Shown: piece after piece, positions 33,351 through 59,666 of the stretch
How the letters are laid out: each line of letters opens with the position of its first letter
How positions within the stretch are numbered: position 1 is the first letter of the stretch
Assembly: GCA_964016885.1 (NCBI GenBank)
Contig: OZ024741.1
Coordinates: 45,446,001-45,510,000, forward strand
Direction of reading: 5' to 3'
From: Eledone cirrhosa
Taxonomy: Eukaryota
DNA length: 64,000 nt
Position numbers and translations under genes: made by a program
Notes under the pieces: generated by a model
Told to the model about the DNA's origin: nothing
What the model saw: only the letters and a program-made list of their open reading frames with translations
Database searches by the model: none

Positions 33351-33410
33351 AAGTACCAGTAACACACTGGTTAATTGCTGGCCTTGTGCCAAACGTAGAA
33401 ACAATTATTA
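33351..33410 (+). repeat. Short SINE-tail-like remnant; related copy on minus strand at 24880-24935
   Basis: cactgg..attgctggccttgtgcc...g.a.acaattattaat at both loci. Confidence 0.55.
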
Positions 33411-33420
33411 ATATTATTAT

Positions 33421-36400
33421 AGTTGCATTTATCTTGCTTTATGTTCATAGGAGTTATCACCAAGTCACAACCAGTGACCTCACGAGAAAATAGGGACGGC
33501 CATGTTCAAATAAAGAACATACATACTCACACATGCATCTTTAGTGTTTAGACTTGTGATGTACTTATATTGACAAAATATTCCTTAGTATATGGGCAGT
33601 TTCCATTAGTACTATCTTTTGTATTTCTCCGATACGCGGGTTTCCTGGGATTTGCGATAAGTAATCATTAGACCCCTTAGGTATCATTCCCAGAGCGCCT
33701 ACAACCACTGGTATTGTTTTAGTTCTCAATTTCCACATTTTTCCAATTTCTATCTCCAGGTCCTTATACTTGCTCAATTTTTCAAATGTTTTTATAGAAA
33801 CCATCTTGTCTATTGGAACGGACATATCAATTAGCAGGCATACCTTCTTTTTAAAGTCCTTCAATATTATATCAGGTCTATTTGCATCTATTTTTCGGTC
33901 TGTTTGGATGCTAAAGTTCCACAAGATTGAGATGTGATCTTTTTCAAGTATGGGAGGTGGTTGATGCTCCCACCAATTCTTTTGATGGGGCAGGTCAAAA
34001 TGCTTACACATTATCCAATGTATGTATTGTGCAGCTCTGTCATGCCTGTTTAGGTATTCGGTTGGAGCTATAGGACTGCACATTGAAATTATATGGTCAA
34101 TGGTCTCTGGTTGTTTTTTGCATACACGGAATAATGGGCTGCATCCATTTTTTATTATGTTGGCTTGGTAATTTTTTGTTGGCAGACACTGATCTTGTGC
34201 TGATATAATCAGTCCTTCAGTCTCCGATTTCAGTCCAGAGGATGCCAACCACTGATGGGTTAAAGTTTTGTCAACATCAGGATTGTTAGCTCGCTCTGGG
34301 TATTTTCCATACAGAGGCTTTTCTTGCCATTTCTTAGCCAGTTTCTGTAGCAGTTCTTTCTTTGCAGTTACTTTTACCTGCTTTGCTTTTTCTGTGTTTT
34401 CCATTTCAGCAGTAAATGGGACTTCTGAAATTTGTAGTCCATTACTGTATCTTTGTGCATCTTTTGTAATGGAATATGATCTTTTGATGCTTTCGTGTTT
34501 CAAAACGAGTTTGATCATCCAATCATGTGATTCCCTTAGATATGTAGATAATCCAATTGTTGCAGTTTTCAACGCAATGTCTAACTGGATTAACCCACAT
34601 CCTCCTTCTTTCCTAGGGAGATATATTCTATCTATATCTGCCTTAGGGTGATGCATTCTGTGCATGGTTAAGAATTTTCGAATTTTTGTATCGATCCTAC
34701 GGATCTCTGTGATTGACCAGTTGATGACATTGTAACTGTAGGTTACTACTGGTATGGCAAGCGTGTTTATGGCATCGATCCTATTCCTTGCATTCAATTC
34801 CGTTCTTAAGATTGCTCTTACTCTGCGGTAACATTCCTTCCTTATACTTTCCCTCATTTTCGAGTGCTTGATTCCGTCTCCTTCACAAACACCTAGATAT
34901 TTGTAAGTTTTTTTCTTGATCAAGTTCTCTTATCACGTTCCCCCGATCAAGATTAATGTCTGAATCTTCAGCAACTTTCCTCTGGTGAACGTTGCTTTGG
35001 CGCATTTATCTAGTCCAAACTCCATTTTAATGTCATCACTGAACTGCTCCACAGTGGATAAAAGCCATTGCAATTGTTCATCATTTTTTGCAAATAGTTT
35101 CAGGCCATCCATGTAGAAGAAGTGATTAATGGTTTTGTCATAGACTTTATATCCATGTTTTGTTTCATTGAGCATTTTACTTAATGGTATAAGTGCGATG
35201 CAGAATAAAAGCGGTGATAATGAGTCACCCTGAAAAATTCCACAATTAATATTAACTTCTCCAGCTTCCAGTGATTTTGTTTCACTATTTCAAAGGAGTG
35301 TCGTTTTCCAAGTCTTCATACTGAATGACAAAAACCTCCTGACAACGGGGGATATTTTGAAAGTCTCTAAACATTTTTCAATCCAACTGTGTGGCAAACT
35401 ATCGAATGCTTTTTTATAATCTATCCAAGCAATCGATAGATTTTTGTGTCTATTATGACAATCTTCCAGTATCATTTTGTTAACCAAGAGCTGATCCTTA
35501 CAGCCATATGAGCCTCGTTTACACCCTTTCTGCTCAATGGGAAATAGGTCATTTGTTATCAGGTGGTCATATGTGTATTCAGTTAGGACTGATGTTAAAA
35601 TTTTATACATTGTGGTCAAGCAAGTTATCGGTCTGTAATTTTTGAGATTGTTTGTCTCATCATTCTTCGGAAGCAGGAATGTAATGCCGTTAACTAGCCA
35701 TGATGATATCTTTTCTGGCGCCTTAACTATTTCATTGTAAAGTTGGGCTAACAGCTCATGAGACTCTGTGAAGGCATTTATCCAAAAGTTTTGTATTTTG
35801 TCTTTTCCTGGGGATTTCCATTTGCTGGTTTTTCTTAGAGCCAAGGGCAACTGTTCAACTGTTATATTTTCCCATATTCGTTCCTCAAGGTGAGCTGTAT
35901 CTTTCATTTGTCTGTCTATCCATGGGGCATGTATGTTATGAACTTTTTCTTCGGCCCAGATCTTTTCCCAGAATTCTTGCACTTCCTCCTTGGGTGGTAT
36001 TGATTTAGCAGTTATTGTTGACTTACCAATTTTTCTGTAGAAGTTTCTTTGGTTGTTTTTGAACATATTATTGTCCTTATAGAATCTAGATCGTTTTTCA
36101 AAGCGCCTTATACGAGCAGCTTTGGCCGACACTTTTTGCTTGATTATTTCTTTCAGCATGTCTATGTCACTTGTTGATTTTATACTGTACTTTCTTTTTA
36201 ATTTTCCAAGTTTAGTTTGTTTAACATGTTCACCTACTTTATAGTTTGTTAAAATTTCTATGTCACATCGGAGAAGGTTTATTTGGCGATTGATGTTCTC
36301 TTGCCAAGTAGATTTCTTGTGGGAATTCCTTTGTTTCTTCATCTTCACTCATTATCTTTTGGTTCTGTTTGGAGTTCTGGATCTTAGGGAGAGTGTCTCG

Positions 36401-37105
36401 TTGCCCCATGTCAGACTCTTTCATTTTCATCCATTCGATCATAATTTCATCCTTCAAGTTGGCAAGTTCATTCTCATTCATTTCTTTATCATTTACGATC
36501 TCATTATTTTCATTTGGATTTTCATCCTGAGCATGCACTCCCTCCACTTTTTCGCTCCTTTCTTTAATTTGTTCTGTTGCCAGTGATTCCGCCCCAACTC
36601 TGGGATTCGAAGTGTTACAGTTTACCTCGTTTTCACTGACACATGCTTCATTTTCCCTTCGCTGACTTTGTGCTACTAGCTTGATCTGATCAATTTCTAT
36701 ATCAGTTAGTAACTTTTTTCTTACAATATTTCTTCGTATATTGGCTAGTTTGTTACTGTCAATATAGCCTCTGTTTTCGGGATGTTTCTTTTTCCAGTTG
36801 ATATATGTCTGTTCTATATTCGATGTATTTGATGGGTAGTACATGGCAGTGTAGAAAGCCTCAAGGACTTCTTTATTATCTTCCCTTGACCATTTTTCTC
36901 TCTTTTTCTTTGGATTTCTTGGTGGTGAGCATGGAGGGCCAACAGTAGGAGTATTCCGGTTATGGGAGGTCTCCAGCTCCGAAGTGATGGGAAGGTTTGA
37001 ACCATTAGCTGATTTTTCGACGCCAGTCTGGTTCCTCTCTGAGGGACGCGGCCCTTTTTTACCCGGGTGACGGCCGATCCGGTATGAGATTTTATCATTA
37101 GACAT
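33421..37105 (-). mobile_element. Dong family A copy 2, truncated exactly at the start codon
   Basis: Near-identical to 20844-24638; ~110-bp internal deletion near 36350; same in-frame TGA at 35290-35292. Confidence 0.92.
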
Positions 37106-37115
37106 TATTATTAGA

Positions 37116-37146
<31 letters not shown>

Positions 37147-37363
37147 GGCGACCTACGTAGTAAATCGTATCATCGTGAGCTCCGCAAAGGTTTGTTATTT
37201 CAGTTTGTTAAAAATTGTCATTTATTCATTTATGGAAAATTTTATTGTTAACTGTTTATAAGCGCACATACATTGTTTTCCGAAAAGGACACCCAAAAAG
37301 ATTGGGGCCTTGTGCCCAAAATTTAAACTTTTATTATTATCAAAAAAAATTTCTTAGAAAAAA

Positions 37364-39329
37364 ATGGCTAATTCACCTCTGCACCAAACAGCTGAAAGCC
37401 TTCCTCACAAATTAACACCTCACACCGACACCACCATTGTAAATGTTACTACGTTTGCCAACACAAAAAAAAAAAATATATAAGCAGTAGCAATATTTTA
37501 AATTTGTCTCAGGCAGACATTCATTTCCCGCCATTACCAATGACTGCAGGTGTTAAAGCCTCCACCACCACCACCACCGCGACAACCACCACTCCCACCA
37601 CCACCGCGACAACAGAAACAAAAGAAGAAAAAAAGAAATTAACTCGTGATGTCGAAATGAAATCAAGCAAAATGGACTCTTCCGCAACAAAGACGACTGA
37701 CGTCACCACCACCACAACTGAAACTAAAATTAATATTAACGATAGCAACAACAACAACAATGACATTATAACCCCCCCCCCCCTCAGTTTCGCCAGAGTA
37801 GCAAAGCAATTCGAAAAATTTACGGTAACACAGGAAGATTTAGAAAATGCCAAGCAAATGGTAAAGAAAGATGGGTACAGGGTCAGCCTCACCCCCCCCA
37901 CCTAATAAAATGGAGCATTGGCGCCTATGCACCGTGTCGTATAGAACAATAAATGTAAAATCGCGCCGAGTGGAACGGGCATCCGAGTCCCAAATCCAAA
38001 AAGCTTTGGGACATGTGTGGGCAAGAAAAACCCACATCAGACGTGGGCAAAAGTATGGAACCGTGGACGTGTTCTTTGAAACACCAGAGGTGGCTAGAGA
38101 ACACTCCATGGCCCCATTAAAAAGTGACGACTTCACACTCGTCCCAAGCTATTGTGGCCAGAGACTCGTAAAGATCAGGGTGACCCACGTTCCACCGGCC
38201 ATCGAAATTCCCTGGCTAATAGCGGCCGTCCTCGCCGGCATCGAAGCCAACACGAAAATAATAGCAATATCAAAAGAAAAGCAGGAAAACTGGTCCGGAT
38301 CTGGGATGGAGCTCCTGATCCAAGCGGACCAAAAAAGCATTGAGGAGATCCCAGAGGTAATAGACCTCACTGACGGCAGCCACCTCACGGTAATTGTCGA
38401 GGGCAGAAGACCTAGGTGTGTCGTTTGTGGTGAAGGAACCCACCTAAGGGCTTTCTGCCCTCAGGCTAAAAGGTTGAGACCACCTCTCCTACCCACCCCA
38501 GTGACACAACCATCAACACCACCAGTAGCAGAGATGGCAGCAACAACTGTAGCAGCAACAACAGAAGCAACTATAACAGCAACAACCCCAGCAACAGTAG
38601 CAAAACCAACACCACCACCACACAACGCTTCAGAACTAGCACCAGCGCCTACACCATCCACCACGCCACAACCAAAACTAAAGGCTGTGGAGGATTTTCC
38701 ACTCCCCGGCCTATCACAACTGGAGACAGATTGTGACGACGAGGAGTGGGAAACGATATCCGGAAAAAAAAAAGAAACCAAAAAAGAAGAAATTCTCTTC
38801 CTTCCCCCTCCAAAAACAAAATACAGAGGGAAACAAATAAATTAAGAAACAAAAAAGTTAGGACAGATATGCCACCATCCACACCAGCATCACCAACCCC
38901 ATCAACCCAAACACCAACACCATCACCATCATTAACCCTAACACCACCATCACCTACACCACAAAAGTCACCAAAATGCGAAACAAACAAACCCACAACA
39001 AACGCAAACAAAACAAAACAACCAAAACGATACACACTACACAGCATTAAATTTGAACAACAAGCAATTATTACACTACATCCAACACAACACCAACATC
39101 ACAGAAAAAGACTACACAACAACCCCAAAATTCACACCACCTCCACACATACAAATGACTCGCATCACACAGAAAAAACGTACATGACACTAAAACAAAA
39201 TTTCCCAAAGACATCGGAGACTTCCGACAAGCACTCTCCAGGAGGATTTATAAGGACATCCTTCCTGAGGAGGCCACAAGCAGTGAAAAAGATGGAAAAA
39301 CCATCCTTCCCCTACGAGAAGTAAGGTAA
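37364..39329 (+). pseudogene. Tx1-A ORF1 (gag-like, CCHC zinc knuckle), frameshifted
   Basis: Starts MANSPLHQTAESL; CVVCGEGTHLRAFC knuckle; breaks at homopolymer runs (~37470, ~37895, ~38770, ~39175). Confidence 0.85.
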
Positions 39330-39363
39330 GTGGTCTTTCCCATCTTTTCCACTCCTTTTCAAC

Positions 39364-42300
39364 ATGACCTCACTCAGAATAGGCAGCATAAATGCGCGTG
39401 GCTTGGGGTCGTCATGGAAGCAAGGCCACCTGCTCAACGACCTCAGGTCACTAAACATAGATGTAGTGGCCATCAGCGAGACCAGAATCTCCGAAGCACA
39501 GGCTTTCGCACCGATCTTCGGCGGCTACGATGTGTACGCATCTCCCAGCCGTCCGGGATCGGGGAGAGGAGTTGCTGTGCTTTTTTGGAGAGGTTTGGAT
39601 CTTGCCATACGGGCCATCTTCCTGGACCCAGAAGGTAAGTTGGTGGTGCTGGACGTGACCAGCGGAGACGGGCAAGCTTTCAGGTTAGTGGCCGTCTATG
39701 CTCCGACAGGAGCAGGGCGGCCTGATTTCTTCCGGCGTCTGGAGATCTTTCTTGGAACGTCCCGCTCTTTAGTGTTAGTGGGCGACTGGAACGGGATCTT
39801 AGATGCACGCTGGGATTGTGTGGGATTAGTGGATAGGGAAGGAGGGTGCAAGAGTCTCACCAACCTGCTCAGACGTTTTGAACTGTCTGACAGGTACCGA
39901 ATGGATTTCCCGAATGTACCAATGTGGACTTGGACAAATCGCATAGGGTCATCCAGATCATATCTAGATAGAGTATTTTGTAGGGAAATAGATAGGTCTA
40001 GCATAGGCTGTCCACAATTCAAGATAGTCAGCTACACGGACCACAAATTCGTGATCTGTGTGCTTGACTTAGATAGGCTTCATAGGCGAGGACCCGGCTA
40101 CTGGAAGCTAAACGCGTCCTTACCAGCGCGCAAGGCCTACAGAGACCGGATTAGCGAACTAGTTAAGCGGGCGTTGACGGGGGCCATCGTCAACAACAAG
40201 TGGTGGTTTGCTCTGAAAAGAGCAATTAGAATAGAGTCCATTAGGTTTAGTAAGACTTTAACAATAGAGAAAAATAGAGCAGAGGGAGAACTAGTTAGAA
40301 AATTAGATGAGGCGCTTAGCAAAGGCATCGCGACCGACGTACTTGCGGCGAAATTGGCCCTTGACCAATTCTTCAATGCAAAGCACGAAGGCTGCGTTGT
40401 CAGAGCTAGGGTGCGTGCTCTCAGACACGAGGGTACGAAAGCCGTTCAATGGGCCCGAATGGCGGAGGCGCGTCGTGGCAACAAAGCCACGATCCGGTCT
40501 TTGGTGGACCACGACGGGCGCATGCTACTCGATCCCGGGCAAATGTGTGAAGCTTTTCAGCGACACTTCGCTCAACTGTTCGGAGGCAGTGGCGGGCCGG
40601 ATCGAGGGATGGACTTTAGTGTCTACCTCGACGGACTGCCGCGGCTTTCGGCCACTGAGGCGGAGTGTTGCGAAAAGCCGATAACAACCGCTGAAGTACG
40701 GGATGCAATGACTAGTTGCACAAGGGGTAAATCGCCTGGTTTGGATGGTCTGCCCTATGAACTTTACGTACAAATGCCAAACTTGTTCGGAGGCCTCTTG
40801 GCGGACGTCTACTGCAACTGGCAACAGAACGGGAGAATTCCCAGCTCTGTGAGCCGAGGAGCGGTGGCGCTGCTGAGAAAGAATCCGAACAAGGGGGATA
40901 ACATAGATAATTTTAGGCCCATAACTCTGCTAAACACAGAGTTCAAGATTTTGGCCAAGGTGCTAGCAAAGAGGTTGGCGCTTGTCGTTGGTGGTCTGGT
41001 GGGAGAGGCACAGACATGCGCCATTCCCGACAGATCCATCCACGACAACCTCCACCTCATGCGATACATCGTAGAGAGGGTAGCTAGGGAACCTGGCACA
41101 GGTGGGCCTTTGATCAATTTAGATCATTCGAAAGCTTTCGATAGTGTCGACCATCGTTACCTAGCGGCAGTCCTGAGGGCGGCTGGCTTTGGGCCCGTCT
41201 TCAGAGGCTGGATCGCTGCCATGCACAGCGACATCTGCTCTGTAGTGAGAGTGAACGGTCACCTTTCGGAACCGTTCAACATCATGCGCTCGGTCCGCCA
41301 AGGATGTCCCCTCTCGTCCCTATTGTACGTATTGACTCTCGAGCCATTACTGCACAAACTGGAGACGTTGAGGGGGGTCCCGCGCGAACTAGGATCCGGA
41401 AGATCCGTGTCAGCATATGCCGACGATGTCACCGTAGTGGTGTCGAACGCCAAACACATCGAGGCGATCGGCACTACACTAAGAGAATACGAAGCGGTGA
41501 CAGGAGCAATGATCAACCAGGAAAAGTCAGTGGGCCTGCAGCTCGGCACCTGGAGAGGCAGGTCCATGCCGTCCAACAGCGTCGTCGGGCGCTGGACGGA
41601 CGGACCGGTTAAATTGCTAGGGGTCTGGTTCGGTCCAGACCTCCAGACGGACAAAAACTTGGACGAGGTGACGAGCAGGGTGGCTTCTCTCACCCAGAAA
41701 TGGGCCGAGAGGAAGCTATCCCTGAAAGGTCGAACGGAGGTGGCGAATGCGTACATCGCATCCGTCATCTACTACCGCCTGACCGTCGTACCTTGTCCTA
41801 AGCCCCGCCTGACTGCGCTGGAGCGTTTGCTCTTTCGCTTCTTGTGGAAGGGACGCGCTCCGATGGTCAGGCGGTCCATCTGCTGCCAACACCCGCTACG
41901 TGGAGGGCTGGGCATGCCGTGGCTGATGATGCGCAGACACGCGCTCAGGCTACGACATCTCCACCTCTTCCTCGACGGTGATCAGGTGTGGTCGCCGTTT
42001 GCAAGACACGTTTTTCCCCAGCTCGTCTCCTTGACGGAGCTGCAGTCCTGGGTCAAGCGAAGACCGAGAGGGAGCGCTTGGAGACTGGAATGTCTTCAGG
42101 CGCTCACAGCCATCGACCAATCGGGCAATGTGATCGGTGGAAACTCCACCTTGGCGTTCTATAGGGGATTAGTGGAGGGGAAGAGCGACGACGTACTTGG
42201 AGAAGCTCTAGGCCTTGACGAAAATCAACTAGCCAATCTCTTCGGAAGGACTTTCGGGCCGGGGCCTATGGACAACTTCCAGAAATCCCTGGCCTGGCAG

Positions 42301-42783
42301 TGCTACCGAGGAGCTTTGCCAGTTCGGGATAAACTCTACAGGCATGGAGGTGCCGTCAGCCGGGCATGTCCGAGATGCGCGCAGGGCGACGAAACCGTCC
42401 TGCACGCACTCGTCCAGTGTCCGAGCATTGCTGACTTGTGGGTTTATGTCGAACACCTGCTGTCACGTGTAGGACGGATACAGCTATCAGCTGAGTCCAT
42501 CGTGAGGATTGCCCCGCCCCCTTCCTTTAGCCTGGAAGGGCAGGCAGTTTTTATCTGTCTGGTGGCCATGGCGAAAGAGATAGTATGGTGGACACGTTTG
42601 AAAGGGCTGAAGACGAGCACTTACCTCTTCGGTGATGCCCTGATTAACTTTTTCAAATTTCATTTGAAAAAGAAAATCAGGGTAGAGAGGGAAGTGCTCT
42701 CTTCCCAGCATTTTGTTGAAAGATGGGTGAGAGAAGCAAGTATGGCCCGAATGAATGGGCCTTCTCTGAGTATGTGTCTGTAA
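39364..42783 (+). CDS. Tx1-A ORF2: APE endonuclease + reverse transcriptase + C-terminal Cys motif, intact 1139 aa
   Basis: NARG, SET, YAP, GDWN, LDR, TDH; PGLDG, NFRPITLLN, RQGCPLS, YADD; CPRC..ETVLHALVQC. Confidence 0.96.
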   Translation: MTSLRIGSINARGLGSSWKQGHLLNDLRSLNIDVVAISETRISEAQAFAPIFGGYDVYASPSRPGSGRGVAVLFWRGLDLAIRAIFLDPEGKLVVLDVTSGDGQAFRLVAVYAPTGAGRPDFFRRLEIFLGTSRSLVLVGDWNGILDARWDCVGLVDREGGCKSLTNLLRRFELSDRYRMDFPNVPMWTWTNRIGSSRSYLDRVFCREIDRSSIGCPQFKIVSYTDHKFVICVLDLDRLHRRGPGYWKLNASLPARKAYRDRISELVKRALTGAIVNNKWWFALKRAIRIESIRFSKTLTIEKNRAEGELVRKLDEALSKGIATDVLAAKLALDQFFNAKHEGCVVRARVRALRHEGTKAVQWARMAEARRGNKATIRSLVDHDGRMLLDPGQMCEAFQRHFAQLFGGSGGPDRGMDFSVYLDGLPRLSATEAECCEKPITTAEVRDAMTSCTRGKSPGLDGLPYELYVQMPNLFGGLLADVYCNWQQNGRIPSSVSRGAVALLRKNPNKGDNIDNFRPITLLNTEFKILAKVLAKRLALVVGGLVGEAQTCAIPDRSIHDNLHLMRYIVERVAREPGTGGPLINLDHSKAFDSVDHRYLAAVLRAAGFGPVFRGWIAAMHSDICSVVRVNGHLSEPFNIMRSVRQGCPLSSLLYVLTLEPLLHKLETLRGVPRELGSGRSVSAYADDVTVVVSNAKHIEAIGTTLREYEAVTGAMINQEKSVGLQLGTWRGRSMPSNSVVGRWTDGPVKLLGVWFGPDLQTDKNLDEVTSRVASLTQKWAERKLSLKGRTEVANAYIASVIYYRLTVVPCPKPRLTALERLLFRFLWKGRAPMVRRSICCQHPLRGGLGMPWLMMRRHALRLRHLHLFLDGDQVWSPFARHVFPQLVSLTELQSWVKRRPRGSAWRLECLQALTAIDQSGNVIGGNSTLAFYRGLVEGKSDDVLGEALGLDENQLANLFGRTFGPGPMDNFQKSLAWQCYRGALPVRDKLYRHGGAVSRACPRCAQGDETVLHALVQCPSIADLWVYVEHLLSRVGRIQLSAESIVRIAPPPSFSLEGQAVFICLVAMAKEIVWWTRLKGLKTSTYLFGDALINFFKFHLKKKIRVEREVLSSQHFVERWVREASMARMNGPSLSMCL

Positions 42784-43264
42784 ATTAAAGGTGGAAAACT
42801 GGGAGAGGGCACTTGCCCTGGTGGTCAGGGCCACTGTGGTCTTTTAATGGGTTTTCTCTACAAATGTCCCTTGGAAGTCTCCCCCCTATTGGGGAATTTT
42901 TCATTGTTATTTTATTTCAACCTCTGTTTTTTACACGCAGAAATGCCCATTTGTACCGTCCTGTATTGTCCTGTACTGTCCTTAATGTCTACTTTATGTG
43001 AACCCTTGTGGTTAATAAAGAAAACATTATTATTATTATTATTATTATTGAATGCCATGGTTGACGGAGGCTCGGCTCTGTAAGGTATAGTAATTTTTAA
43101 CCGTTAAAACAATTGTAAATTGTTTAAAACTTGAACCAAATTGTTGATAAAGACACCCTCCTCCTCGTGAGAGGGGTCTTTCTGTCCGTTATTTGGCCCT
43201 TCGGGGTTAAATAACCAGTTATTGGGGTTTTGTACCCAAAATTTCATTTTAAACAAAAAACAAC

Positions 43265-45355
43265 ATGGCTACGAAAAAGAAATTTCATACGTCACTCCCA
43301 CTCATTCCGTCTTCTTCTTCCTCAATCATCACTACAGCAGAGAGAAGATTGTCTCTCTCCCTCCCTTCTTTAAATGTGTCTCTCTCCCTCCCTTCTCTTT
43401 CGCAAGTGACGAAAGAAAAGAAAAGTCCCGTGCAAAGCGTGCAAGGTTTCTCCACGACGACGACGACAGCGACGAAACAGGTGTGCGGGAAATACGAAAA
43501 CCCAGTTCATTCGTCTGACGTCAGGAATAATAGCAGTAGCAGCCGTAATAACAACAGCAACAGTGACAATGAAAACAACAGTAGCAGCCGCAACAGCATC
43601 ACCAGCAGCATAAACAACAACAGCATTAGCAGCAGCAACACCAACAACAACCACAGCAACAGCGGCGGAGGCAGTAGTCGTAGTACCTGCAGCAACAACA
43701 AAAGTACCAGCAGCTCTGACGACAACAACAACAGCAGAGAAAAACCAATCTCATTTGCAGGTATTGCGAAAAACTTGGAAACAATCCTCATAACAAATGA
43801 GGAATTAGAGGAAGCGAAGAAGATGGTGACAAAGAACCGACACCGAGCAATCTGCAAGGCAGCGAAAAATTTTTTCGAAACCCAAGAGCACTGTACGGTC
43901 ACGTACCGTACAGTAAGTACAAAATCCCGTAGGGTGGAAAGAGCCACAGAGGCCCAAATACAAAAAGCCTTTTGGTCTGTGTGGCAGCGGAAAACGCACA
44001 TCACCCGAGGCAAAAAATATGCCACCGTAGACGTACTTTTTGCCACACCCCAGGAGGCAAAGGCCCAATCAGTAGTGACCCTAAGGAGCGAGGAAATGGT
44101 GTTGGTGCCCTCCTACTGTGGGCAAAAAATTGTGAGGGTCAAACTAACCCACGTCCCCCCCGGAATGACCCCTTCTTGGCTGGCCGCGTCTGTCCTCGTC
44201 GGAATCGAGGACAAAACAACTGTACTGCAAGTACAGAAAAAAGTAAGAGAAGATTGGGTCGGCTCCTCCATTGAGATGCTAATCCAAACCAACCAGGAGT
44301 GCATCGAAGCTATCCCGGATGTGATAGACTTCGATAACGGCACTCAACTGCCCATAAGTGTTGAGGGCAAACGCCCGAAATGCTTTCGCTGTGGATCGAA
44401 GACTCACCTCAGGGCCTTCTGCAACGAGAAGACCCTGAGAAAGGAGAAAACCCCCCTCCTTCCGAATCCGGCTCCACGGCTACCAGCAACAGGACAAGCG
44501 GCAACCAGGAACGATAGGTCCGTGGCACCCATACCCACTCCACGGAAATCAAAAACAGCAGCAGCAGTGGAAATATTAACAACAACAGCAATACCAAATG
44601 CAGCTGCAACAGAGACTCCAGTGCAAACATCACCAACAACAAGTGAAAGAGTGGAGCTGGTACCCCTCCCCGACCTCACAGAATCAGACATGGAGTGTGA
44701 GGTGGGAGAGGGATGGCAAAAGGTCGTAAGAAGGCACAAACGCAGAAGCAGCGCATCGTCGCCTTTGAAAAGGGAGGAAAGAAATGAGAAAAGGGTAAAG
44801 TCTACTGCAAAGAGACCCACAGCAGCAACAACACCAACACCATCACCACCCACACTAGCGCCACCATCACCACCGGCGACAACCCCACCGCCAACAACAC
44901 CTTCAACACCACCACCACAAGCACCAACATCGCAAACACAACAACAAAACACACACACCCAGCAACAACGACAAGAAAATAGCAGAACCACACCCCACCC
45001 CCAGAAAAACAAATGCACGGCAATAAATACACACAACAAGAAACTAATGACTTACATAATTGAACACACAAACATTTCACAACAGGACTACATAATACCA
45101 GCACCAATCAAAACGCCAACTAACATAAGACTGCTAAAAATAGCACAGAAACAATACACAAATATTAAAACGAAATTCCCCAACGCAGTTGGTGATTTCA
45201 GAGACCTAGGAGGAACCATCAATCGAAGAGTATACTCAGACATTCTCTTAGAAGAGCCGACGACCAGCCGAAGGGACGATTCAACGGTCCCTTCACCAGA
45301 CGATCAAGTGAAAAGGGATGTAAAAACCATCCCTCCTCTACCAAAAGTACGGTAA
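43265..45355 (+). CDS. Tx1-B ORF1 nucleic-acid-binding protein, 696 aa
   Basis: S/N-rich N-terminus, conserved core shared with ORF1-A, CFRCGSKTHLRAFC knuckle, P/T-rich tail. Confidence 0.93.
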   Translation: MATKKKFHTSLPLIPSSSSSIITTAERRLSLSLPSLNVSLSLPSLSQVTKEKKSPVQSVQGFSTTTTTATKQVCGKYENPVHSSDVRNNSSSSRNNNSNSDNENNSSSRNSITSSINNNSISSSNTNNNHSNSGGGSSRSTCSNNKSTSSSDDNNNSREKPISFAGIAKNLETILITNEELEEAKKMVTKNRHRAICKAAKNFFETQEHCTVTYRTVSTKSRRVERATEAQIQKAFWSVWQRKTHITRGKKYATVDVLFATPQEAKAQSVVTLRSEEMVLVPSYCGQKIVRVKLTHVPPGMTPSWLAASVLVGIEDKTTVLQVQKKVREDWVGSSIEMLIQTNQECIEAIPDVIDFDNGTQLPISVEGKRPKCFRCGSKTHLRAFCNEKTLRKEKTPLLPNPAPRLPATGQAATRNDRSVAPIPTPRKSKTAAAVEILTTTAIPNAAATETPVQTSPTTSERVELVPLPDLTESDMECEVGEGWQKVVRRHKRRSSASSPLKREERNEKRVKSTAKRPTAATTPTPSPPTLAPPSPPATTPPPTTPSTPPPQAPTSQTQQQNTHTQQQRQENSRTTPHPQKNKCTAINTHNKKLMTYIIEHTNISQQDYIIPAPIKTPTNIRLLKIAQKQYTNIKTKFPNAVGDFRDLGGTINRRVYSDILLEEPTTSRRDDSTVPSPDDQVKRDVKTIPPLPKVR

Positions 45356-45389
45356 GTGGTCTTTCCCATCTTTTCCACTCCTTTTAAAC

Positions 45390-48300
45390 ATGACCTCACT
45401 CAGAATAGGCAGCATAAATGCGCGTGGCTTGGGGTCGTCATGGAAGCAGGGTCACCTGCTCAACGACCTCAGGTCACTAAACATAGATGTAGTGGCCATC
45501 AGCGAGACCAGAATCTCCGAAGCACGGGCCTTCGCACCGATCTTCGGCGGCTACGATGTGTACGCATCTCCCAGCCGTCCTGGATCCGGTGGAGGAGTTG
45601 CTGTACTTTTTCGGAGAGGTTTGGATCTCGCCATACGGGCCATCTTCCTGGACCCAGAGGGTAAGCTGGTGGTGCTGGACGTGACCAGCGGAGACGGGCA
45701 AGCTTTCAGGCTAGTGGCCGTCTATGCCCCGACAGGAGCAGGGCGGCCTGATTTCTTCCGGCGTCTGGAGACCTTTCTTGGAACGTCGCGCTCTTTAGTG
45801 TTAGTGGGCGACTGGAACGGGATCTTAGATGCACGCTGGGACTGTGTGGGATTAGCGGATAGGGGTGGAGGGTGCAAGAGCCTCACCAACCTGCTCAGGC
45901 GTTTTGAACTGTCTGACAGGTACCGATTGGATTTCCCGAATGTGCCAATGTGGACTTGGACAAACCGCATAGGGTCATCCAGATCATATCTAGATAGAGT
46001 ATTTTGTAGGGAAATAGATAGGTCTAGCATAGGCTGTCCACAATTCAAGATAGTCAGCTACACGGACCACAAATTCGTGACCTGTGTGCTTGACTTAGAT
46101 AGGCTTCATAGACGAGGACCCGGCTACTGGAAGCTAAACGCGTCCTTACCAGCGCGCAAGGCCTACAGAGACCGGATTAGCGAACTAGTTAAGCGGGCGT
46201 TGACGGGGGCCATCGTCAACAACAAGTGGTGGTTTGCTCTGAAAAGAGCGATTAGAATAGAATCGATTAGGTTTAGTAAGGCTTTAGCAATAGAGAAAAA
46301 TAGAGCAGAGGGAGAACTAGTTAGAAAATTAGACGAGGCGCTTAGCAAAGGCATTGCGACCGACGTGCTTGCGGCGAAATTGGCCCTTGACCAATTCTTC
46401 AATGCAAAGCACGAAGGCTGCGTTGTCAGAGCTAGGGTGCGTGCTCTCAGACACGAGGGGACGAAAGCCGTTCAATGGGCCCGAGTGGCGGAGGCGCGTC
46501 GTGGCAACAAAGCCACGATCCGGTCTTTGGTGGACCACGACGGGCGCATGCTACTCGATCCCGGGCAAATGTGTGAAGCTTTTCAGCGACACTTCGCTCA
46601 GCTGTTCGGGGGCAGCGGGGGGCCGGGTAGAGGGATGGACTTTAGTGTCTACCTCGACGGACTGCCGCGGCTCTCGGCCACTGAGGCGAAGTGTTGCGAA
46701 AAGCCGATAACAGCCGCTGAAGTACGGGAGGCAATGACTGGCTGCACAAGGGGTAAATCGCCTGGTTTGGATGGTCTGCCCTATGAACTTTACGTACAGA
46801 TGCCAGACTTGTTCGGAGGCCTCTTGGCGGACGTCTACTGCAACTGGCAACAGAACGGGAGAATTCCCAGTTCTGTGAGCCGAGGAGCGGTGGCACTGCT
46901 GAGAAAGGATCCGAACAAGGGGGATAACATAGACAATTTCCGGCCCATAACTCTGCTAAACACAGAGTTTAAGATTTTGGCCAAGGTGCTAGCAAAGAGG
47001 TTGGCGCTTGTCGTTGGTGGTCTGGTGGGAGAGGCGCAGACATGCGCCATTCCCGACAGATCCATCCACGACAACCTCCACCTCATGCGATACATCGTAG
47101 AGAGGGTAGCTAGGGAACCTGGCACGGGTGGGTCCTTGATCAATTTAGATCAGTCGAAAGCTTTCGATAGGGTCGACCATCGTTACCTAGCGGCAGTCCT
47201 GAGGGCGGCTGGCTTTGGGCCCGTCTTCAGAGGCTGGATCGCTGCCATGCACAGCGACATCTGCTCTGTGGTGAGAGTGAACGGTCACCTGTCGAAACCG
47301 TTCAACATCATGCGCTCGGTCCGCCAAGGATGTCCCCTCTCGTCCCTCTTGTACGTATTGACTTTCGAGCCATTACTGCACAAACTGGAGACGTTGAGGG
47401 GGGTCCCGCGCGAACTAGGATGCGGAAGATCCGTGTCAGCATATGCGGACGATGTCACCGTAGTGGTGTCGAACGCCAAACACATCGAGGCGATCGGCAC
47501 TACACTAAGAGAATACGAAGCGGTGACAGGAGCAATGATCAACCAGGAAAAGTCAGTGGGCCTGCAGCTCGGCACCTGGAGAGGCAGGTCCATGCCGTCC
47601 AACAGCGTCGTCGGGCGCTGGACGGACGGACCGGTTAAATTGCTAGGGGTCTGGTTCGGTCCGGACCTCCAGACGGACAAAAACTGGGACGAGGTGACGA
47701 GCAGGGTGGCTTCTCTCACCCAGAAATGGGCGGAGAGGAAGCTATCCCTGAAAGGTCGAGCGGAGGTGGCTAACGCGTACATCGCGTCTGTCATCTGCTA
47801 CCGCCTAACCGTCGTACCTTGTCCTAAGCCTCGCCTGACTGCGCTGGAGCGTTTGCTCTTTCGCTTTTTGTGGAAGGGACGTGCTCCGATGGTCAGGCGG
47901 TCCATCTGTTGTCAACACCCGCTACGTGGAGGGCTGGGCATGCCGTGGCTGATGATGCGCAGGCACGCGCTCAGGCTACGACATCTCCACCTCTTCCTCG
48001 ACGGTGATCAGGTGTGGTCGCCGTTTGCTAGACGCGTTTTTCCCCAGCTCGTTTCCTTGACGGAGCTGCAGTCCTGGGTCAAGCGAAGACCGAGAGGGAG
48101 CGCCTGGAGACTGGAATGTCTTCAGGCGCTCACAGCCCTCGACCAATCGGGCAATGTGATCGGTGGAAACTCCACCTCGGCGTTCTATAGAGGATTAGTG
48201 GAGGGGAAGAGCGACGACGTACTTGGGGAAACTCTAGGCGTCGACGAAAATCAACTAGCCAATCTCTTCGGAAGAACTTTCGGGCCGGGGCCTATGGACA

Positions 48301-48809
48301 ACTTCCAGAAATCTCTGGCCTGGCAGTGCTACCGAGGAGCCTTGCCAGTTCGGGATAAACTCTACAGGCATGGAGGTGCCGTCAGCCGGGCATGTCCGAG
48401 ATGCGCGCAGGGCGACGAAACCGTCCTGCACGCACTCGTCCAGTGTCCGAAAATTGCTGACTTGTGGGTTTATGTCGAACACCTGCTGTCGCGTTTAGGA
48501 CGGATCCAGCTATCATCTGAGTCTATCGTGAGGATTGCCCCGCCCTCCTCCTTTAGCCGGGAAGGGCAGGCAGTTTTTATCTGTCTGGTGGCCATGGCGA
48601 AAGAGATAGTATGGTGGACACGTTTGAAAGGGCTGAAGACGAGCACTTACCTCTTCGGTGATGCTCTGATTGACTTTTTCAAATTTCATTTGAAAAGGAA
48701 AATCAGAGTAGAGAAGGAAGTGCTCTCTTCCCAGCATTTTGTTGAAAGATGGGTGAGAGAAGCAAGAATGGCCCGAGTGAATGGGCCGACTCTGAGTATA
48801 TATCTGTAA
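45390..48809 (+). CDS. Tx1-B ORF2 APE-RT, intact 1139 aa
   Basis: All APE and RT motifs intact including LDQSKAFDRV and YADD. Confidence 0.96.
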   Translation: MTSLRIGSINARGLGSSWKQGHLLNDLRSLNIDVVAISETRISEARAFAPIFGGYDVYASPSRPGSGGGVAVLFRRGLDLAIRAIFLDPEGKLVVLDVTSGDGQAFRLVAVYAPTGAGRPDFFRRLETFLGTSRSLVLVGDWNGILDARWDCVGLADRGGGCKSLTNLLRRFELSDRYRLDFPNVPMWTWTNRIGSSRSYLDRVFCREIDRSSIGCPQFKIVSYTDHKFVTCVLDLDRLHRRGPGYWKLNASLPARKAYRDRISELVKRALTGAIVNNKWWFALKRAIRIESIRFSKALAIEKNRAEGELVRKLDEALSKGIATDVLAAKLALDQFFNAKHEGCVVRARVRALRHEGTKAVQWARVAEARRGNKATIRSLVDHDGRMLLDPGQMCEAFQRHFAQLFGGSGGPGRGMDFSVYLDGLPRLSATEAKCCEKPITAAEVREAMTGCTRGKSPGLDGLPYELYVQMPDLFGGLLADVYCNWQQNGRIPSSVSRGAVALLRKDPNKGDNIDNFRPITLLNTEFKILAKVLAKRLALVVGGLVGEAQTCAIPDRSIHDNLHLMRYIVERVAREPGTGGSLINLDQSKAFDRVDHRYLAAVLRAAGFGPVFRGWIAAMHSDICSVVRVNGHLSKPFNIMRSVRQGCPLSSLLYVLTFEPLLHKLETLRGVPRELGCGRSVSAYADDVTVVVSNAKHIEAIGTTLREYEAVTGAMINQEKSVGLQLGTWRGRSMPSNSVVGRWTDGPVKLLGVWFGPDLQTDKNWDEVTSRVASLTQKWAERKLSLKGRAEVANAYIASVICYRLTVVPCPKPRLTALERLLFRFLWKGRAPMVRRSICCQHPLRGGLGMPWLMMRRHALRLRHLHLFLDGDQVWSPFARRVFPQLVSLTELQSWVKRRPRGSAWRLECLQALTALDQSGNVIGGNSTSAFYRGLVEGKSDDVLGETLGVDENQLANLFGRTFGPGPMDNFQKSLAWQCYRGALPVRDKLYRHGGAVSRACPRCAQGDETVLHALVQCPKIADLWVYVEHLLSRLGRIQLSSESIVRIAPPSSFSREGQAVFICLVAMAKEIVWWTRLKGLKTSTYLFGDALIDFFKFHLKRKIRVEKEVLSSQHFVERWVREARMARVNGPTLSIYL

Positions 48810-49070
48810 ACTAAAGGTGGAAAACTGGGAGAGGGCACTTGCCTTGGTGGTCAGGGTCATTGTGGCTTTTTACTGGGCTTTCTCCACAAATGTCCCTCCG
48901 AAGTCTCCCCCCTATTGGGGAATTTTTCATTGTTATTTTCATCGTTATTTTTGTTACATCCTCTGTTTTTGTTTTTTTTACACGCAGAAATGCCCATTTG
49001 TACCGTCCTGCATTGTCCTGCACTGTCCTTAATGTCTACTTTATGTAAACCCTTGTGGTTAATAAAGAAA

Positions 49071-49071
<1 letters not shown>

Positions 49072-49152
<81 letters not shown>
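49072..49152. repeat. (TTA)n target/tail tract shared tail-to-tail by Tx1-B and Dong-B; one of ~11 such tracts
   Basis: Other tracts at 20399-20438, 20764-20843, 25785-25818, 27359-27420, 33338-33421, 37106-37146, 43026-43049, 53918-53978, 58503-58527, 59608-59666. Confidence 0.97.
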
Positions 49153-49154
<2 letters not shown>

Positions 49155-52100
49155 CTTGAATCTCAGTCATTGATGTTAGTTAACTGGAAAGTCCGTTGGA
49201 ATGAATATCAAGCCACTACCTGCAGCCTCAGATATTCAGGACGTATCGGAGGGTTCTTGCTGTTCCCAGCAAGCATGCCTTTTGAAGCGTTCCAAAAAGA
49301 GTGAAGGGGCCGATTTTCTTTAACCATTCCTGGAAACTTTTGGAGATAGTCCCCAGTGCGCCTATGACAATCGGGATAACTTTGACTTCATGGCAGTTCC
49401 AAATCCTTTTTACCTCCCACTTTAAGTCCTGGTATCGGTTAATTTTCTCCCTCTCCTTCTCTTGCACTCTCGTGTCGAATGGGCAGGCCACATCCACAAT
49501 CAGACACGATCTTTTTTTCTTTGTCCACAACCACCAGGTCAGGTCTATTGTGTTCCAGTTTCTTGTCCGTCTGTATCCTAAAATCCCACAGCACCTTCAC
49601 CTGATCGTTCTCCATCACCGCCTCTGGCTTATGCTCATACTATTTCTCAGAATGTGGTAAATTGTTTACTTTGCACAGGTGCCAGTGGATCACCCTGCCC
49701 ATCACATCATGTCTCCAGCCCTTATAGTGGGTCTGGGCTAGGTGTTTACACTCGGACACAATGTGAGCCACAGTCTCCTCTCTCTCTCCACAGATCCTGC
49801 ACAGTGCTCTAGCCTCCTCCTTGTAAATATGGTGTTTCAACCACTTGGTTTTGAGGGCCTGTTCTTGCGCAGCCATTAACATTCCTTCTGTAGCCTTTTT
49901 TAAGGTCTCCTCTTCTCAACCAGTTCCATGTCTGTGGATCTCTAAATTCAGTTTTCTCAAAGAAGGTACTATGAAGGGATTTTTCCTGAAGGCTGCTCTT
50001 TCTCCTTGATGTTATTTCCTCCTTGGACATCCCCTGGCCTATTGTCCCCTCCTTCAGTACAGTTCTGAGCATTGGCTCCTTACTATCAGTCAGGTATTTG
50101 TGTAGGTTGTTTTTCTCCATCTGAACACAGTCCTCTATGCTGATAAGACCTCTTCCACCCTCAGATCTCCTTAGGTAGAGTCTATCGACATCACTCCTCT
50201 TGTGGAACATGTTGTAGATAGTCAATAACTTCCTAGTCTTCCTATCCATTTCTTTTTGTTCAGCAACATTCCATCTCAGAATTCCCGCACTGTACCTAAT
50301 AATAGACACAGCTCGGGAATTTACTGCGCTTATGGCATTTCTGCTGTTCAGATGTGACTTCAATACGCTCCTTACTCTCCGAATGTATTCAGTTCTTAAC
50401 AATTCTTTCATTTTTTTGTTCTTTATGCCATCAGCCTCCAGAACGCCCAAATACTTATATCCTTCCTCAGAATCAATTTCCTTTATCATCTCACCTGTTG
50501 GTATCTGGATTCCGTTACTTCTGCTCAACCTACCCCTCCTCATCACAATGACTCCACATTTGCTAATACCAAACTGCATACATATATCCCTGCTGAAAAT
50601 ACGGACAGTGTCAACAAGCACATCCAACTCCTTCTCACTCTTCCCGAAGAGCTTAAGATCGTCCATGAAGAGGAGGTGATTGATGGTAAGCCCTCCCTTC
50701 CCCAACCCGTATCCTGCTCTCACTTTTCGCAGTACACTGGTCAAGGGCATCAGGGCAAGGACAAACAACAGAGGGGACAGGCTATCTCCCTGGAAGATAC
50801 CTCTACTGATCTTCACGCTTCTCAAGGATTATCCAGTTGATGTCAACTCTGTTTCCCAGGACCTCATACTCTTGCCCAACAACTGTCTGATGTTATCTGT
50901 CACCTTGAAGATCTCCAGGCTTTTGGTGATCCAAGAATGAGGCACCATGTCAAATGCCTTTCTGTAGTCTATCCATCCCATGGCAAGATCAGTGTGTCTC
51001 CTCCTGCAATTCCCCATTACCATCTTATCAATAAGTAACTGGTCCTTTGTACCACGTGACTTCTTTCGGCATCCTTTCTGTTCGTCCGGTAACAAGTTGT
51101 TTGTGTGGAGGTGATGGTAGATTTCCTCAGACACAATGCTCGTCAACAGTTTCCACATTACGGACAGACATGTGATAGGTCTATAGTTGGTAACATCATT
51201 ACCCTTGATTCGGTCTTTCATTATCAGAACTGTGGTACCTTTTGTCAACCACTCTGGTACCTCACCTGACATCAAGCAGTCATTGAACATGGTTGTCAGT
51301 TTCGGGTGGAGGGATGTTATATTTTTAATCCAATACCCCTGCACACCATCTGGGCCTGGTGATTTCCAGTTGGTTAGTTTTTTTGGCCTGCCCCATAAGA
51401 GTTTCAACTGTGATACTCAATTCAGTTTGTTGGTGTGCCTGCTCACCGATCTCCCTTTGTACTGTCTCAATCCATCCTGCCTGGTCATTATGTCTAACAT
51501 CCTGCTCCCATATTCCTCTCCAGAATGTTTTAGTTTGTTCCGCCCGAGGGATCAAGTCGTTGCCTCTTTCTTTCCCCTCAAGCTGTCCAAACAGCATCTT
51601 CTGGTTGTTGTCGAACATGCGGTTCTGTTTATACTGACTGACTCTGTTCTCGTATCGCCTGATTTTTGCACTCTTTGCTACAATGCGTTGCTTCAGTTCC
51701 TCTATGATAATATTTAGCTTTTTCCTCCTAGTTTTGTACGTTTTTTCCAGTTATTTTTAGTGCCTATGTTTTTTAGTGTCCCATTCAGTAGTGACTCAAG
51801 CTTTCCTATGTCATTTCTCATTTCCCTGATTTGACCACTCAGTCGTTTCTTCCACCAAGGCTCTGCTCTTTCTTGTCTGTTGCTTGCTCTCACTTTTATA
51901 CCAAGTAGTTTCCTCACCGTATTTGCTGTTGCTTTGAGGATATTGTTGCACTGGTGAAGGCTCCTCGCCTCAAGGTATGGGATGACTTTGTTTACCTTAG
52001 CTGTTGTTTCTTTTAACTTTTTCCTGTCTACAAATCTTAGGTTCATAGGTCTCCCACTATCATTGTTCAATTCATCTACCACTAAATTTAGGATGTCAAC

Positions 52101-53917
52101 CGAATCTTGTCCTAGCCCGTCAGCATTCATCTCCTCAGTGGCCGTATCTCTGTTCCAGGTATTATTTATCTCAGTATTCAGATCATTGTCTGCTTCGGGT
52201 GGTTCCTCCGTTCTCTCGACCTCTTCACCTTCATTTCCCACTGGCTCGTTTGTCTGGCATACTCTATACTCCATCTCCAAGCTAATCTCTCTGCTCAGTT
52301 CCTCCAGTTCCAGCTCGCTTATCCACCCATTAGTTCTTATTACCCGAGCCTGCCCGGCCAATTTTTGTTCATCTAATTTAAATAGACCAATCTCGTTCCA
52401 GATGTTATGCATCCGTCTCCTATAGCCCCTCTCCTTGGGGTTACTTTTCAGGTAACATTGCATAACAGTTCTATTCAATTCTTTCGTCCAGTTGGTTCTG
52501 GTCCCTTTCCTTCTTCTTCTTCCTCCGACACCAGCAGTATTTGGTTGACAGCCAGGTTCCTGCTGCTGAGCCAGGGAGCACCTGTTGGGTGAGAGTCTGT
52601 CACATGACGTTCTAGTCTCCATTTCACCGTTATTCGAACTGTTCAGGTTCGATATTTAAACACTCTTATCGAGGATTGGCGAATGTATGGTTACATAGCC
52701 ATCTGTGGATTCACCGTCTCCGGCGGTTGCGCTGCTCCACTTGGCTCTTGTGTGGCATTATCACCACGCTGTAGACGAACACAAATAAACAAACAAACAA
52801 ACAGGCAGAAAAAAACCCAAAAATGAATAAGCATAAGTTTCATTGTAATGTAGTGTTCGAATGTCTGACTTAGTTTTTCCCTTCTCTTCTCTGTCCATCC
52901 GCTTGTTTCTCTCTTCATTCTTATTTTCTTTACGTTTTTTTTTGTTTTTGTTTTTCTCTGTTTGTTTTTCTCTTATTTTGCTGTTGTTGCTGTGCTACTT
53001 TGGTTTTGATGTTTGTTTTTTCTTTTGAGTCTATCTATATATTTTGATGCCTTCCTCTTTTTTAGTAGGAATTCTATAATGTGGTGGCAGCAACTAGCAG
53101 GAAGCAATGGGAGAGAATAGCGGCGGTAGCGATACTGAGACAGTGGTGGTGGTGATGTCGATACTGAGGCAGTGGTGGTGGTGATGTGATCGTATTACTG
53201 TAGTGATGGTGTTGTAGCGGTGGTAGCAATGAAGGAGTGGTGGCGGCGGTGATGGGATAGTGATAGTAATGATGGCAGTGGTGGTGGTGATGTGATCGTA
53301 TTACTGTAGTGATGGTGTTGTAGCGGTGGTAGCAATGAAGGAGTGGTGGCGGCGGTGATGGGATAGTGGTAGTAATGATGGATGGGCGGCGTTGTCGTTA
53401 CTGATGTCCGTTCGGTGAATCTATGGGGTTAGTCGCGTATATGTGTTGACATAAATTCCCTTGATGTTGGAATTAAACATTTTGTTAAAACTTGGGACAA
53501 TAATAATAGTATTTATTATTATCATTATTATGTTGAGATTGGTTGTGGTGGTGGTGAAATTGCCGTTATCTGGCTGTTGTGTTTAGTGTACACAGAGAGT
53601 AGATGGGGTAGGTGGTGTATCTAGTTTCTGGTGTTGGAGAGATTGGTGTTGTTTGGCTGTTCTATATAGTGTAGACAGAGGAGGGGGGGGGTTCTTCTTC
53701 TTCCATTTATAGCCATTTTCTTTTTTGAATATACAATGTACAATACATGGTTGAATATTTGAATATTTGAGCCTTATAACAATATATTTTGGGTCCGAAT
53801 TTTTTGGGGGGCTCAAGCCGGATGCTTTACGTAGCATTTGTACTAAGAGTTGTTATTCCACAAATGATTTAAATATGTTAAAAATACAAAACTTACGGGA
53901 GCGATTTCATGACCTTC
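49153..53917 (-). mobile_element. Dong family B copy 1, full length, frameshifted
   Basis: ORF fragments 52622-49228 with RT, CRIC..H...C and RPD motifs; 1.3-kb 5'UTR. Confidence 0.93.
52769..53896 (-). other. Candidate 5'UTR intron of Dong-B
   Basis: Donor GTAAGT at 53896-53891; long U-rich tract ending CTACAG at 52769; both conserved in copy 2 (58463, 57589), acceptor in copy 3 (63262). Confidence 0.55.
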
Positions 53918-53926
53918 TTATTATTA

Positions 53927-53966
<40 letters not shown>

Positions 53967-53978
53967 GTTGTTGTTATT

Positions 53979-59606: not shown

Positions 59607-59608
<2 letters not shown>
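58528..59608 (-). mobile_element. Dong family B 3' fragment (~1.1 kb)
   Basis: ORF 58603-59598; TTA flanks. Confidence 0.92.
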
Positions 59609-59655
<47 letters not shown>

Positions 59656-59666
59656 GTTATTGTTAT

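Follow-up and report, generated by a model that had tools for sequence, protein, structure and literature searches.

A leader intron in Dong elements of Eledone cirrhosa and the likely kinship of their 5' heads with those of Tx1 elements

The window analysed here, a 64,000-nucleotide stretch of the Eledone cirrhosa genome (G000:C2:45446001-45510000, in a genome of 3.0 Gb), raises the question of whether LINEs of two clades, one with an APE-type and the other with a restriction-like endonuclease (RLE), can carry one and the same 5' head, as an earlier note on this DNA had claimed. From 20.4 kb on, the window is filled by a nest of LINEs inserted within (TAA)n runs, and the elements that matter for the argument are the following, in window positions.

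12755..13833, plus strand: DongC fragment, an older sister family of DongA
15609..19520, minus strand: 5'-truncated Tx1C; full copies of this family, found elsewhere, stand after (ATCT)n and have another head
20829..25784, minus strand: full-length DongA with a single ORF (22714-24492 and 20989-22713)
27817-33349, plus strand: second copy of Tx1A
33404..37106, minus strand: headless, 5'-truncated DongA, in divergent orientation to Tx1A, with an (ATT)n run between the two
37147..43036, plus strand: Tx1A, ORF1 frameshifted, ORF2 at 39325-42783
43050..49083, plus strand: Tx1B, ORF1 at 43265-45355, ORF2 at 45324-48809
49089..58502, minus strand: tandem pair of DongB elements (49089-53917 and 53918-58502)
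59607..64000, minus strand: third DongB, its head cut by the end of the window, ATG at 63974

Elements of the nest and their heads

Tx1A and Tx1B each comprise an ORF1 and an APE-RT ORF2. In Tx1B, ORF1 holds an RRM-like region and a CCHC knuckle, and ORF2 holds APE, RT and zf-RVT domains. This is the layout of the L1 group and of the Tx1 clade, namely ORF1 followed by an ORF2 with N-terminal APE, RT and a C-terminal zinc-binding region, and the best solved relative of the Tx1 ORF2 is human L1 ORF2p (E 1.6e-51, residues 5-854). That these elements belong to Tx1 rather than to L1 we infer from their target specificity and the CCHC motif of ORF1, the 12 relatives found being all unnamed. The resemblance of the ORF1 core to CCHC/ZCCHC3-type proteins is a lead only. 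The single ORF of DongA, on the other strand, encodes RT, CCHC and a PD..D-type restriction-like endonuclease. Pfam RVT_1 is present in the Dong proteins and Exo_endo_phos absent, the translations contain the motifs CRIC..H..SEC and RPDL..D..K, and the best solved relatives are R2 proteins. One ORF with RT before CCHC and endonuclease, no APE, and insertion into TAA repeats, with (TAA)n flanking full copies on both sides, are traits of R4/Dong. We take these minus-strand elements to be Dong, a label that rests on domain order and on the target, the relatives in our tree being unnamed. Each tandem DongB consists of a head, about 800 nt, the RT/RLE ORF and a (TAA)n tail. The DongC and Tx1C families, which have different heads on full copies elsewhere, served as controls. 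The present genome resembles that of Octopus vulgaris, as tabulated in PMC13282606, in its abundance of active Dong-R4 and L1-Tx1 families.

The heads and their parts are these.

37147..37366, plus strand: Tx1A head, GCTCCGCAAAGGT at 37179, AG at 37356-37357, ATG at 37364
43050..43267, plus strand: Tx1B head, with a 30-nt first segment, donor-like GTAAGG at 43080, AT-rich leader and the ORF1 ATG at 43265
25740..25784, minus strand: DongA exon 1, 45 nt, beginning GGGAAGAAG directly after (TAA)n
25572..25739, minus strand: DongA leader intron, 168 nt, GTAAGT...AAAAAAAG (its end also cited as TTCAAAAAAAG)
25174..25571, minus strand: DongA head ATG (25568), short upstream ORF and a CAC/CCA-rich stretch common to DongA and DongB
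53714..53917, minus strand: DongB head, copy 1, shortened at its 5' end, predicted intron 53896-53720, ATG at 53716
58283..58502, minus strand: DongB head, copy 2, predicted intron 58463-58289, ATG at 58285

From the 5' end to ATGG, all heads measure 207-227 nt, and that of Tx1E 230. The quoted motifs and the ATGG(C/T)TA at 37364, 43265, 53716 and 25568 lie where the earlier note had put them, and ATGG stands 171-185 nt past the G(T/C)AA motif (37184, 43080, 53896 and 25739), in agreement with the claimed distance of about 170-185 nt. The place of this motif was thus read correctly; that it is a splice donor had gone unrecognized.

Each Dong head in the window is preceded by the tail of a different Dong element. 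Genome-wide, the linkage of heads to bodies is consistent. Among the best 30 of 1590 candidate loci of the Dong head, 28 begin at unit position 1-3 right after (TAA)n and all 30 run into a Dong body (25 DongA, 5 DongB). For Tx1A and Tx1B, the loci (25 of 25 in each family) begin behind (ATT)n and lead into the ORF1 of the same family. From the body side, the start of the head was reached in 21 of 30 DongB and 17 of 30 DongA loci, and the remaining ones stop inside the same 5' region. What lies upstream of the Dong heads varies (Dong tails, Tx1 heads, unrelated DNA, on many chromosomes), and these many chromosomes and different neighbours rule out tandem duplication as the source of the linkage. 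Not one of 197 head occurrences joined a Tx1 head to a Dong protein or a Dong head to a Tx1 protein, a count in which 32 occurrences had no marker match, 28 of them Dong heads and most of these in DongB loci, as the marker lacked the DongB N-terminus. The opposite polarity of the two heads with respect to (TAA)n was likewise confirmed by genome-wide patterns: a Tx1A head after (AAT)n and a Dong head after (ATT)n were each matched once, both times at a mixed AAT/ATT junction.

The leader intron of Dong and the exchange of heads within clades

A genome-wide search for Dong exon 1 followed by a base other than G found two places where exon 1 is joined directly to AAAATGG. Both are full-length DongA insertions (L232 and L233), one on C2 and the other on C3, that differ in neighbours and in sub-variant; they lack exactly unit positions 46-213, corresponding to 25739-25572 in the window, and show no microhomology at the junction. 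Allowing one mismatch returned the same two copies. They are spliced retrocopies, and the Dong head holds a GT-AG intron. In DongA, namely, the intron has all the marks of the U2 type: it opens with a GT donor, closes with an AG acceptor and has been cut out exactly from copies made from RNA. It takes up three quarters of the head, and only 3 nt separate it from the ATG. DongB has the same splice signals; the genome pattern search found no spliced DongB copy, nor, with the same exon 1 then non-G pattern, any junction to a downstream TACAG site.

This precise loss means that head and body were transcribed as one RNA and processed by the spliceosome, and spliceosomal processing in turn implies transcription by Pol II. 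Since there are two spliced copies as against 1829 intact donors (about 0.1% of heads), unspliced RNA is almost always the form that is copied. The fixed 5' ends and the splicing fit a putative internal Pol II promoter in the head. A comparable case is that of the human L1 SpIREs, which are spliced integrated copies (PMC5860796). As that source describes them, they share with the present elements the splicing inside the 5' UTR, the rarity of the retrotransposed spliced copies and a donor that is kept where it overlaps a promoter element; unlike them, the present case concerns an RLE-type LINE of the R4/Dong clade, and its donor position is matched in Tx1 families. In the open-access literature we found no report of a spliced leader intron in R4/Dong.

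In Tx1, six genome searches found no spliced copies, with none among 100 of 104, 23 of 23 and 84 of 84 loci examined. All 19 loci from one of the searches for spliced Tx1 proved to be another repeat, and ten odd candidates resolved into an unrelated repeat (eight), a Tx1B head on a Tx1 3' end (one) and a short deletion (one). Many Tx1 heads have no AG ahead of the ATG, so that the acceptor is variable, and 104 Tx1A copies are without AAAG-GT. The donor-like motif of Tx1 may owe its retention to a role in the promoter or in U1 binding, by analogy with L1, whose donor is preserved within a RUNX3 site (PMC5860796).

Within Dong, heads move between deep lineages. Over the first 227 nt, 19 DongA-linked copies match 4 DongB-linked ones at 96.9-99.6% identity, and the DongA and DongB proteins are only 39% identical. 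In a quick tree, DongA pairs with DongC (53% identical), and DongB falls among outside proteins with which it shares up to 69% identity; the outside rows of this tree, every third of 120 found with DongB as the query, favour relatives of DongB. DongC, the sister of DongA, has another head. It consists of two monomers, starts with GAAGAAG, has its donor at 50 nt and a length of 214-221 nt, and ends in AG followed by AAAATGG and a CAC-rich stretch, and in sequence it does not resemble the DongA/B head (z -0.4 to 0.6 under shuffles that preserve the donor and the local composition). One head on bodies that are 39% identical, with a different head on the sister family, is what shows the movement. 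The Dong 5' regions are mosaics in which the A and B types switch within CAC-rich repeats. Tx1A and Tx1B, for their part, are 95% identical in the DNA of ORF2 and differ in both heads and ORF1s. Exchange of the head is thus shown within the DongA/DongB and Tx1A/Tx1B pairs; the suggestion that all these elements draw freely on a common exchangeable module is not supported, there being no cross-clade chimera among the 197 heads.

Within-clade exchange of this kind is known from mouse L1, with recruitment of 5' UTRs and recombination between families (PMC3600994). In what that source describes of mammalian L1, non-homologous or swapped 5' UTRs sit on related bodies, as they do in Tx1A/Tx1B and DongA/DongB, recombination between families occurs in ORF1, and the 5' UTR has tandem monomers. 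The L1 exchange described there stays in one clade; here it reaches Dong bodies that are 39% identical and probably also crosses the divide between APE and RLE elements.

Likeness of Dong and Tx1 heads

Six Tx1 heads were gathered, of the TAA-targeting families A, B, D and E and of the ATCT-targeting C1 and C2, and all six have a donor-like motif at 30-46 nt. For the Tx1 and Dong heads of the window, alignment gave z 2.6-5.9 under lenient and z 0.1-4.6 under blastn scoring (500 dinucleotide shuffles), and under the same shuffles the heads of Tx1A and Tx1B, with z values of 3.8 and 5.6, are about as alike as those of Tx1 and Dong. Single pairs of DongA/B with Tx1 A, B, D and D2 range over z 0.2-4.8 with donor-preserving local shuffles. 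The summed score of Dong against Tx1A, B, D and E, computed with the terminal A-run and ATG removed, tops all 243 GTAAG-anchored windows taken from 20 random 10-kb genome stretches (200 kb), at z 4.5-4.9, or 4.5-5.1 against the AT-rich subset. In the same test, the DongC heads reach z 1.6-1.9 and the ATCT-targeting C1 and C2 z 2.3 and 3.1. The body of the Dong intron alone, donor excluded, scores z 3.9-4.0 and is exceeded by none of the 243 windows; exon 1 alone is non-significant (z 1.3-1.7). The Tx1 and Dong heads thus do beat shuffled and real-DNA controls, though modestly. Together with the genome-wide linkage of heads to bodies, this clears both refutation tests that the earlier note had set.

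The profile search is less favourable. With bias correction, nhmmer with a Tx1-head profile found no significant match in Dong (E 0.4-7 in one search and 0.13-4.4 in another). When the correction is left out, E values of 1e-4 are reached by random AT-rich DNA as well as by three of the four Dong heads, and the Dong heads are moreover not independent of one another. In 344 kb, Dong heads make up three of the five nhmmer matches, the best of them covering profile positions 32-176. In detail, TCGCTCCCGTAAG is identical in Dong and Tx1D, Dong and Tx1E both have GACGCAC, GCTC(G/A)AATATTCA and CAAAAAAAGAA(T/A)ATGG, and a GCTCC(C) ahead of the donor is common to Dong and Tx1. The first segment measures 45 nt in DongA/B and 50 nt in DongC, mostly 30-37 nt in Tx1 and about 46 nt in Tx1E. 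None of the six Tx1 heads is a close donor of the Dong head, and the best Tx1-Dong pairs are about as distant as the Tx1 families are from each other. Judging by sequence, the Dong head thus resembles a further Tx1 head, with a likeness close to the limit of what can be detected. The Tx1 heads are barely alignable among themselves though their ORF2s are 70-95% identical in DNA, so whatever real likeness to Dong survives must date from long after the two clades parted. Homology of the two heads is likely, not proven, and if it holds, transfer between the clades follows. Of the claim of one homologous head, then, a likeness above chance stands and significance in a profile search does not.

Convergence is an explanation that we regard as unlikely, and it deserves to be spelled out. 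It holds that Tx1 and Dong separately reached a short exon, a GTAAG donor, an AT-rich intron and an A-rich ATG leader, a generic build of host Pol II units (captured leaders of host genes, for example), so that only the swap between DongA and DongB was a real transfer. The donor and the A-rich context of the ATG are generic signals, the profile search was non-significant, and DongC has the same build without sequence likeness to DongA/B; because of this last point, part of the Tx1-Dong resemblance has to be put down to generic leader-intron architecture. However, the likeness remains outside the donor and the ATG context, as the score of the intron body shows, it is absent in DongC, which has the generic build, and the shared GCTCC(C) lies outside the splice consensus.

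The direction of a transfer is a matter of the head ATG. In Tx1 it opens ORF1, as the earlier note had it (in Tx1B from 43265), and in all 23 Dong copies it opens only an upstream ORF of 10-43 codons. The decayed ORF1 that the earlier note had seen in Dong is not confirmed: in DongB the head ATG and STLYRTAK... lie in different frames, and in DongA the reading is stopped after 18 codons. Compared with five Tx1 ORF1 starts, Dong shows no significant similarity as protein (z -0.9 to 2.4) and a patchy one as DNA (z -0.3 to 4.0), the latter in low-complexity CA-rich sequence. The idea that Dong captured a Tx1 promoter together with the start of ORF1 keeps its first half as likely, where head likeness reaches z of about 4-5; capture of the ORF1 start is not established.

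An origin in Dong itself, with the DongA/B and DongC heads as saturated homologues and TAA-targeting Tx1 as the recipient, or in a third, unseen element from which both took the head, appears distinctly improbable. The heads of DongA/B and DongC do both begin GAAGAAGA, have first segments of 45-50 nt and end in AG(G)AAAATGG before a CAC-rich stretch. Yet the head ATG is functional only in Tx1, the ATCT-targeting Tx1, outside the TAA group, already have the build, and DongA/B heads are nearer to those of Tx1 than to those of DongC. Finally, the notion that the head is a free-standing repeat, or what is left of an adjacent Tx1 insertion, and was wrongly ascribed to the Dong that follows it in a tandem array, is hardly credible: it could appeal to the adjacency of each Dong head in the window to another Dong's tail, and we reject it given the linkage from head and body sides, with a fixed start after (TAA)n, varied neighbours, many chromosomes and Dong bodies in 30 of 30 loci, and given that the spliced full-length insertions prove a single RNA from head to tail.

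Proposed capture and what it would mean

We lean towards the reading that Dong captured from Tx1 a Pol II leader cassette with a putative promoter. The head would be the internal Pol II promoter-leader of the Tx1 group, its promoter activity probably lying largely inside the intron, so that only unspliced RNA would give fertile copies and spliced copies would be dead ends. Tx1 would be the donor and Dong the recipient, since ORF1 begins at this ATG in the former and the latter has there only an upstream ORF of 10-43 codons. As Tx1 and Dong have, with almost no exception, opposite polarity in the shared arrays, the head of a neighbour is never in the sense of Dong. The reverse transcriptase, on finishing with the Dong RNA, could have made a template jump to the 5' portion of a Tx1 transcript; alternatively, capture could have come about by read-through from an inverted Tx1 5' fragment. 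Either route would yield a same-sense fusion and thereby account for the head's reversed orientation relative to (TAA)n. Tx1 itself offers cases of a head linked to a 5'-truncated body (L160 and L362). Same-sense chimeras are known to arise by template switching (10.1101/2025.02.02.635956), and the U6/L1 and Alu/L1 chimeras treated there resemble the proposed event in being same-sense 5' additions made by template switching or RNA ligation. As that source presents them, they are mostly single dead insertions, in contrast to the fused form found here, which propagates (1829 heads).

In silkmoth (Bombyx mori) Dong, an HDV-like ribozyme self-cleaves at the 5' junction (PMC3774820). With that element and Ascaris R4, as covered by the same source, the present Dongs share the TAA-repeat target and the single ORF with RT and restriction-like endonuclease; the 5' end is an HDV-like ribozyme there and here a 5' region of 1.0-1.4 kb that starts with a spliced leader. 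For such a ribozyme, Rfam gave no match, and a strict descriptor, which was used without a positive-control benchmark and could miss remnants, gave 0 matches in nine Dong 5' regions. The cassette would have replaced the self-cleaving 5' end known from silkmoth and, no ribozyme having been detected here, would have given Dong a start site of its own.

Kibi and Koshi are microsatellite-targeting elements of the Tx1 clade. Such elements, as a class (PMC4640811), likewise have two ORFs, APE, a CCHC ORF1 and target-specific insertion; the present ones differ in that their (ATT)n and (ATCT)n targets are shared with Dong in nested arrays and that, 30-46 nt into the element, they carry a conserved motif resembling a splice donor. 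A wider scenario, which we offer tentatively, is that the cassette jumped from Tx1 to Dong in (TAA)n arrays, turned a co-transcribed element of the ribozyme type into a self-promoting one and spread across lineages that are 39% identical, DongC having taken an analogous cassette separately, and that shared arrays would be sites of exchange between the deepest branches of non-LTR elements. In the open-access literature we found no report of promoter swapping between APE-type and RLE-type clades; libraries of the Repbase type may already contain these 5' ends.

Even without the link to Tx1, the 5' regions are unusable for classifying these families, since one spliced head sits on two bodies that are 39% identical, and a retroelement may retain an intron in its leader if that intron contains the promoter. 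If the link is true, it would extend the L1 type of 5' UTR replacement across the divide between APE and RLE elements, it would explain how transcription is achieved by RLE elements whose microsatellite targets lie outside any host transcription unit, and it would make this question of transcription testable with a single cassette of 220 nt.

Repeated monomers in the DongB 5' region

In some copies of DongB, an RLE-type R4/Dong LINE family, the 5' region contains two to four tandem monomers of about 322 nt each (unit 154-474, counted from the element's 5' end), resembling in this respect the promoter monomers of mouse L1. Namely, such copies are found at the following loci elsewhere in the genome (numbered L, with their own internal coordinates):

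L174:2206-3330
L175:6139-7146
L366
L039
L071

Every monomer carries the acceptor and the ATG of the 5' leader, or head; the donor is not repeated. In addition, judging from its sequence, one tract in the window looks like a candidate second splice acceptor:

57640-57589, minus strand, pyrimidine/TG tract ending in TCTACAG, directly 5' of the DongB ORF

A search for a genomic junction of exon 1 to this candidate found none. As for the Dong donor itself, a genome pattern search returned no point mutants of its G against 1829 intact donors, while the donor patterns of the APE-type families Tx1A and Tx1B, by contrast, gave 23-104 mutants, a difference that may be a search artefact.

Foreign sequence and other repeats

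In the related families DongA and DongC, the 5' regions have incorporated the 3' terminus of a SINE-like repeat, short, dispersed and common:

24870-24935 of the window, minus strand, DongA unit 850-916
L239-L242, DongC, between monomers

In DongA, this piece is followed by a stretch similar, as judged by eye, to an inverted Tx1 3' end, and we read these pieces as probable traces of 5' transduction. The window also holds:

3041-4610, minus strand, decayed Penelope-like element (RT and GIY-YIG matches under Pfam cut-offs)
42609-42704, hairpin (inverted repeat) in a Tx1 3' region
8555-8900 and 10735-11445, palindromic or MITE-like inverted repeats around (TA)n runs

Tx1 heads within and beyond their families

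At L160:7034-8916 and L362, Tx1A and Tx1B heads run straight into the 3' portion of a Tx1 body, which at L160 shares 83% identity with Tx1B; these fusions are non-autonomous elements or template-switch chimeras within Tx1. The Tx1C families (L197-L207) have (ATCT)n instead of (ATT)n as their insertion target and build tandem arrays of their own, and similar Tx1C ORF1s carry at least two different heads, C1 and C2.

In the scoring against the Tx1 heads, the top background match was a 960-nt tandem unit (L255:2244-4164) containing GACGAAATCG...GAGCGTAAGTT. In three of 20 random 10-kb stretches (L248, L249 and L253), a Tx1A-type head adjoins Dong sequence, and nests in TAA arrays therefore make up a large part of the genome.
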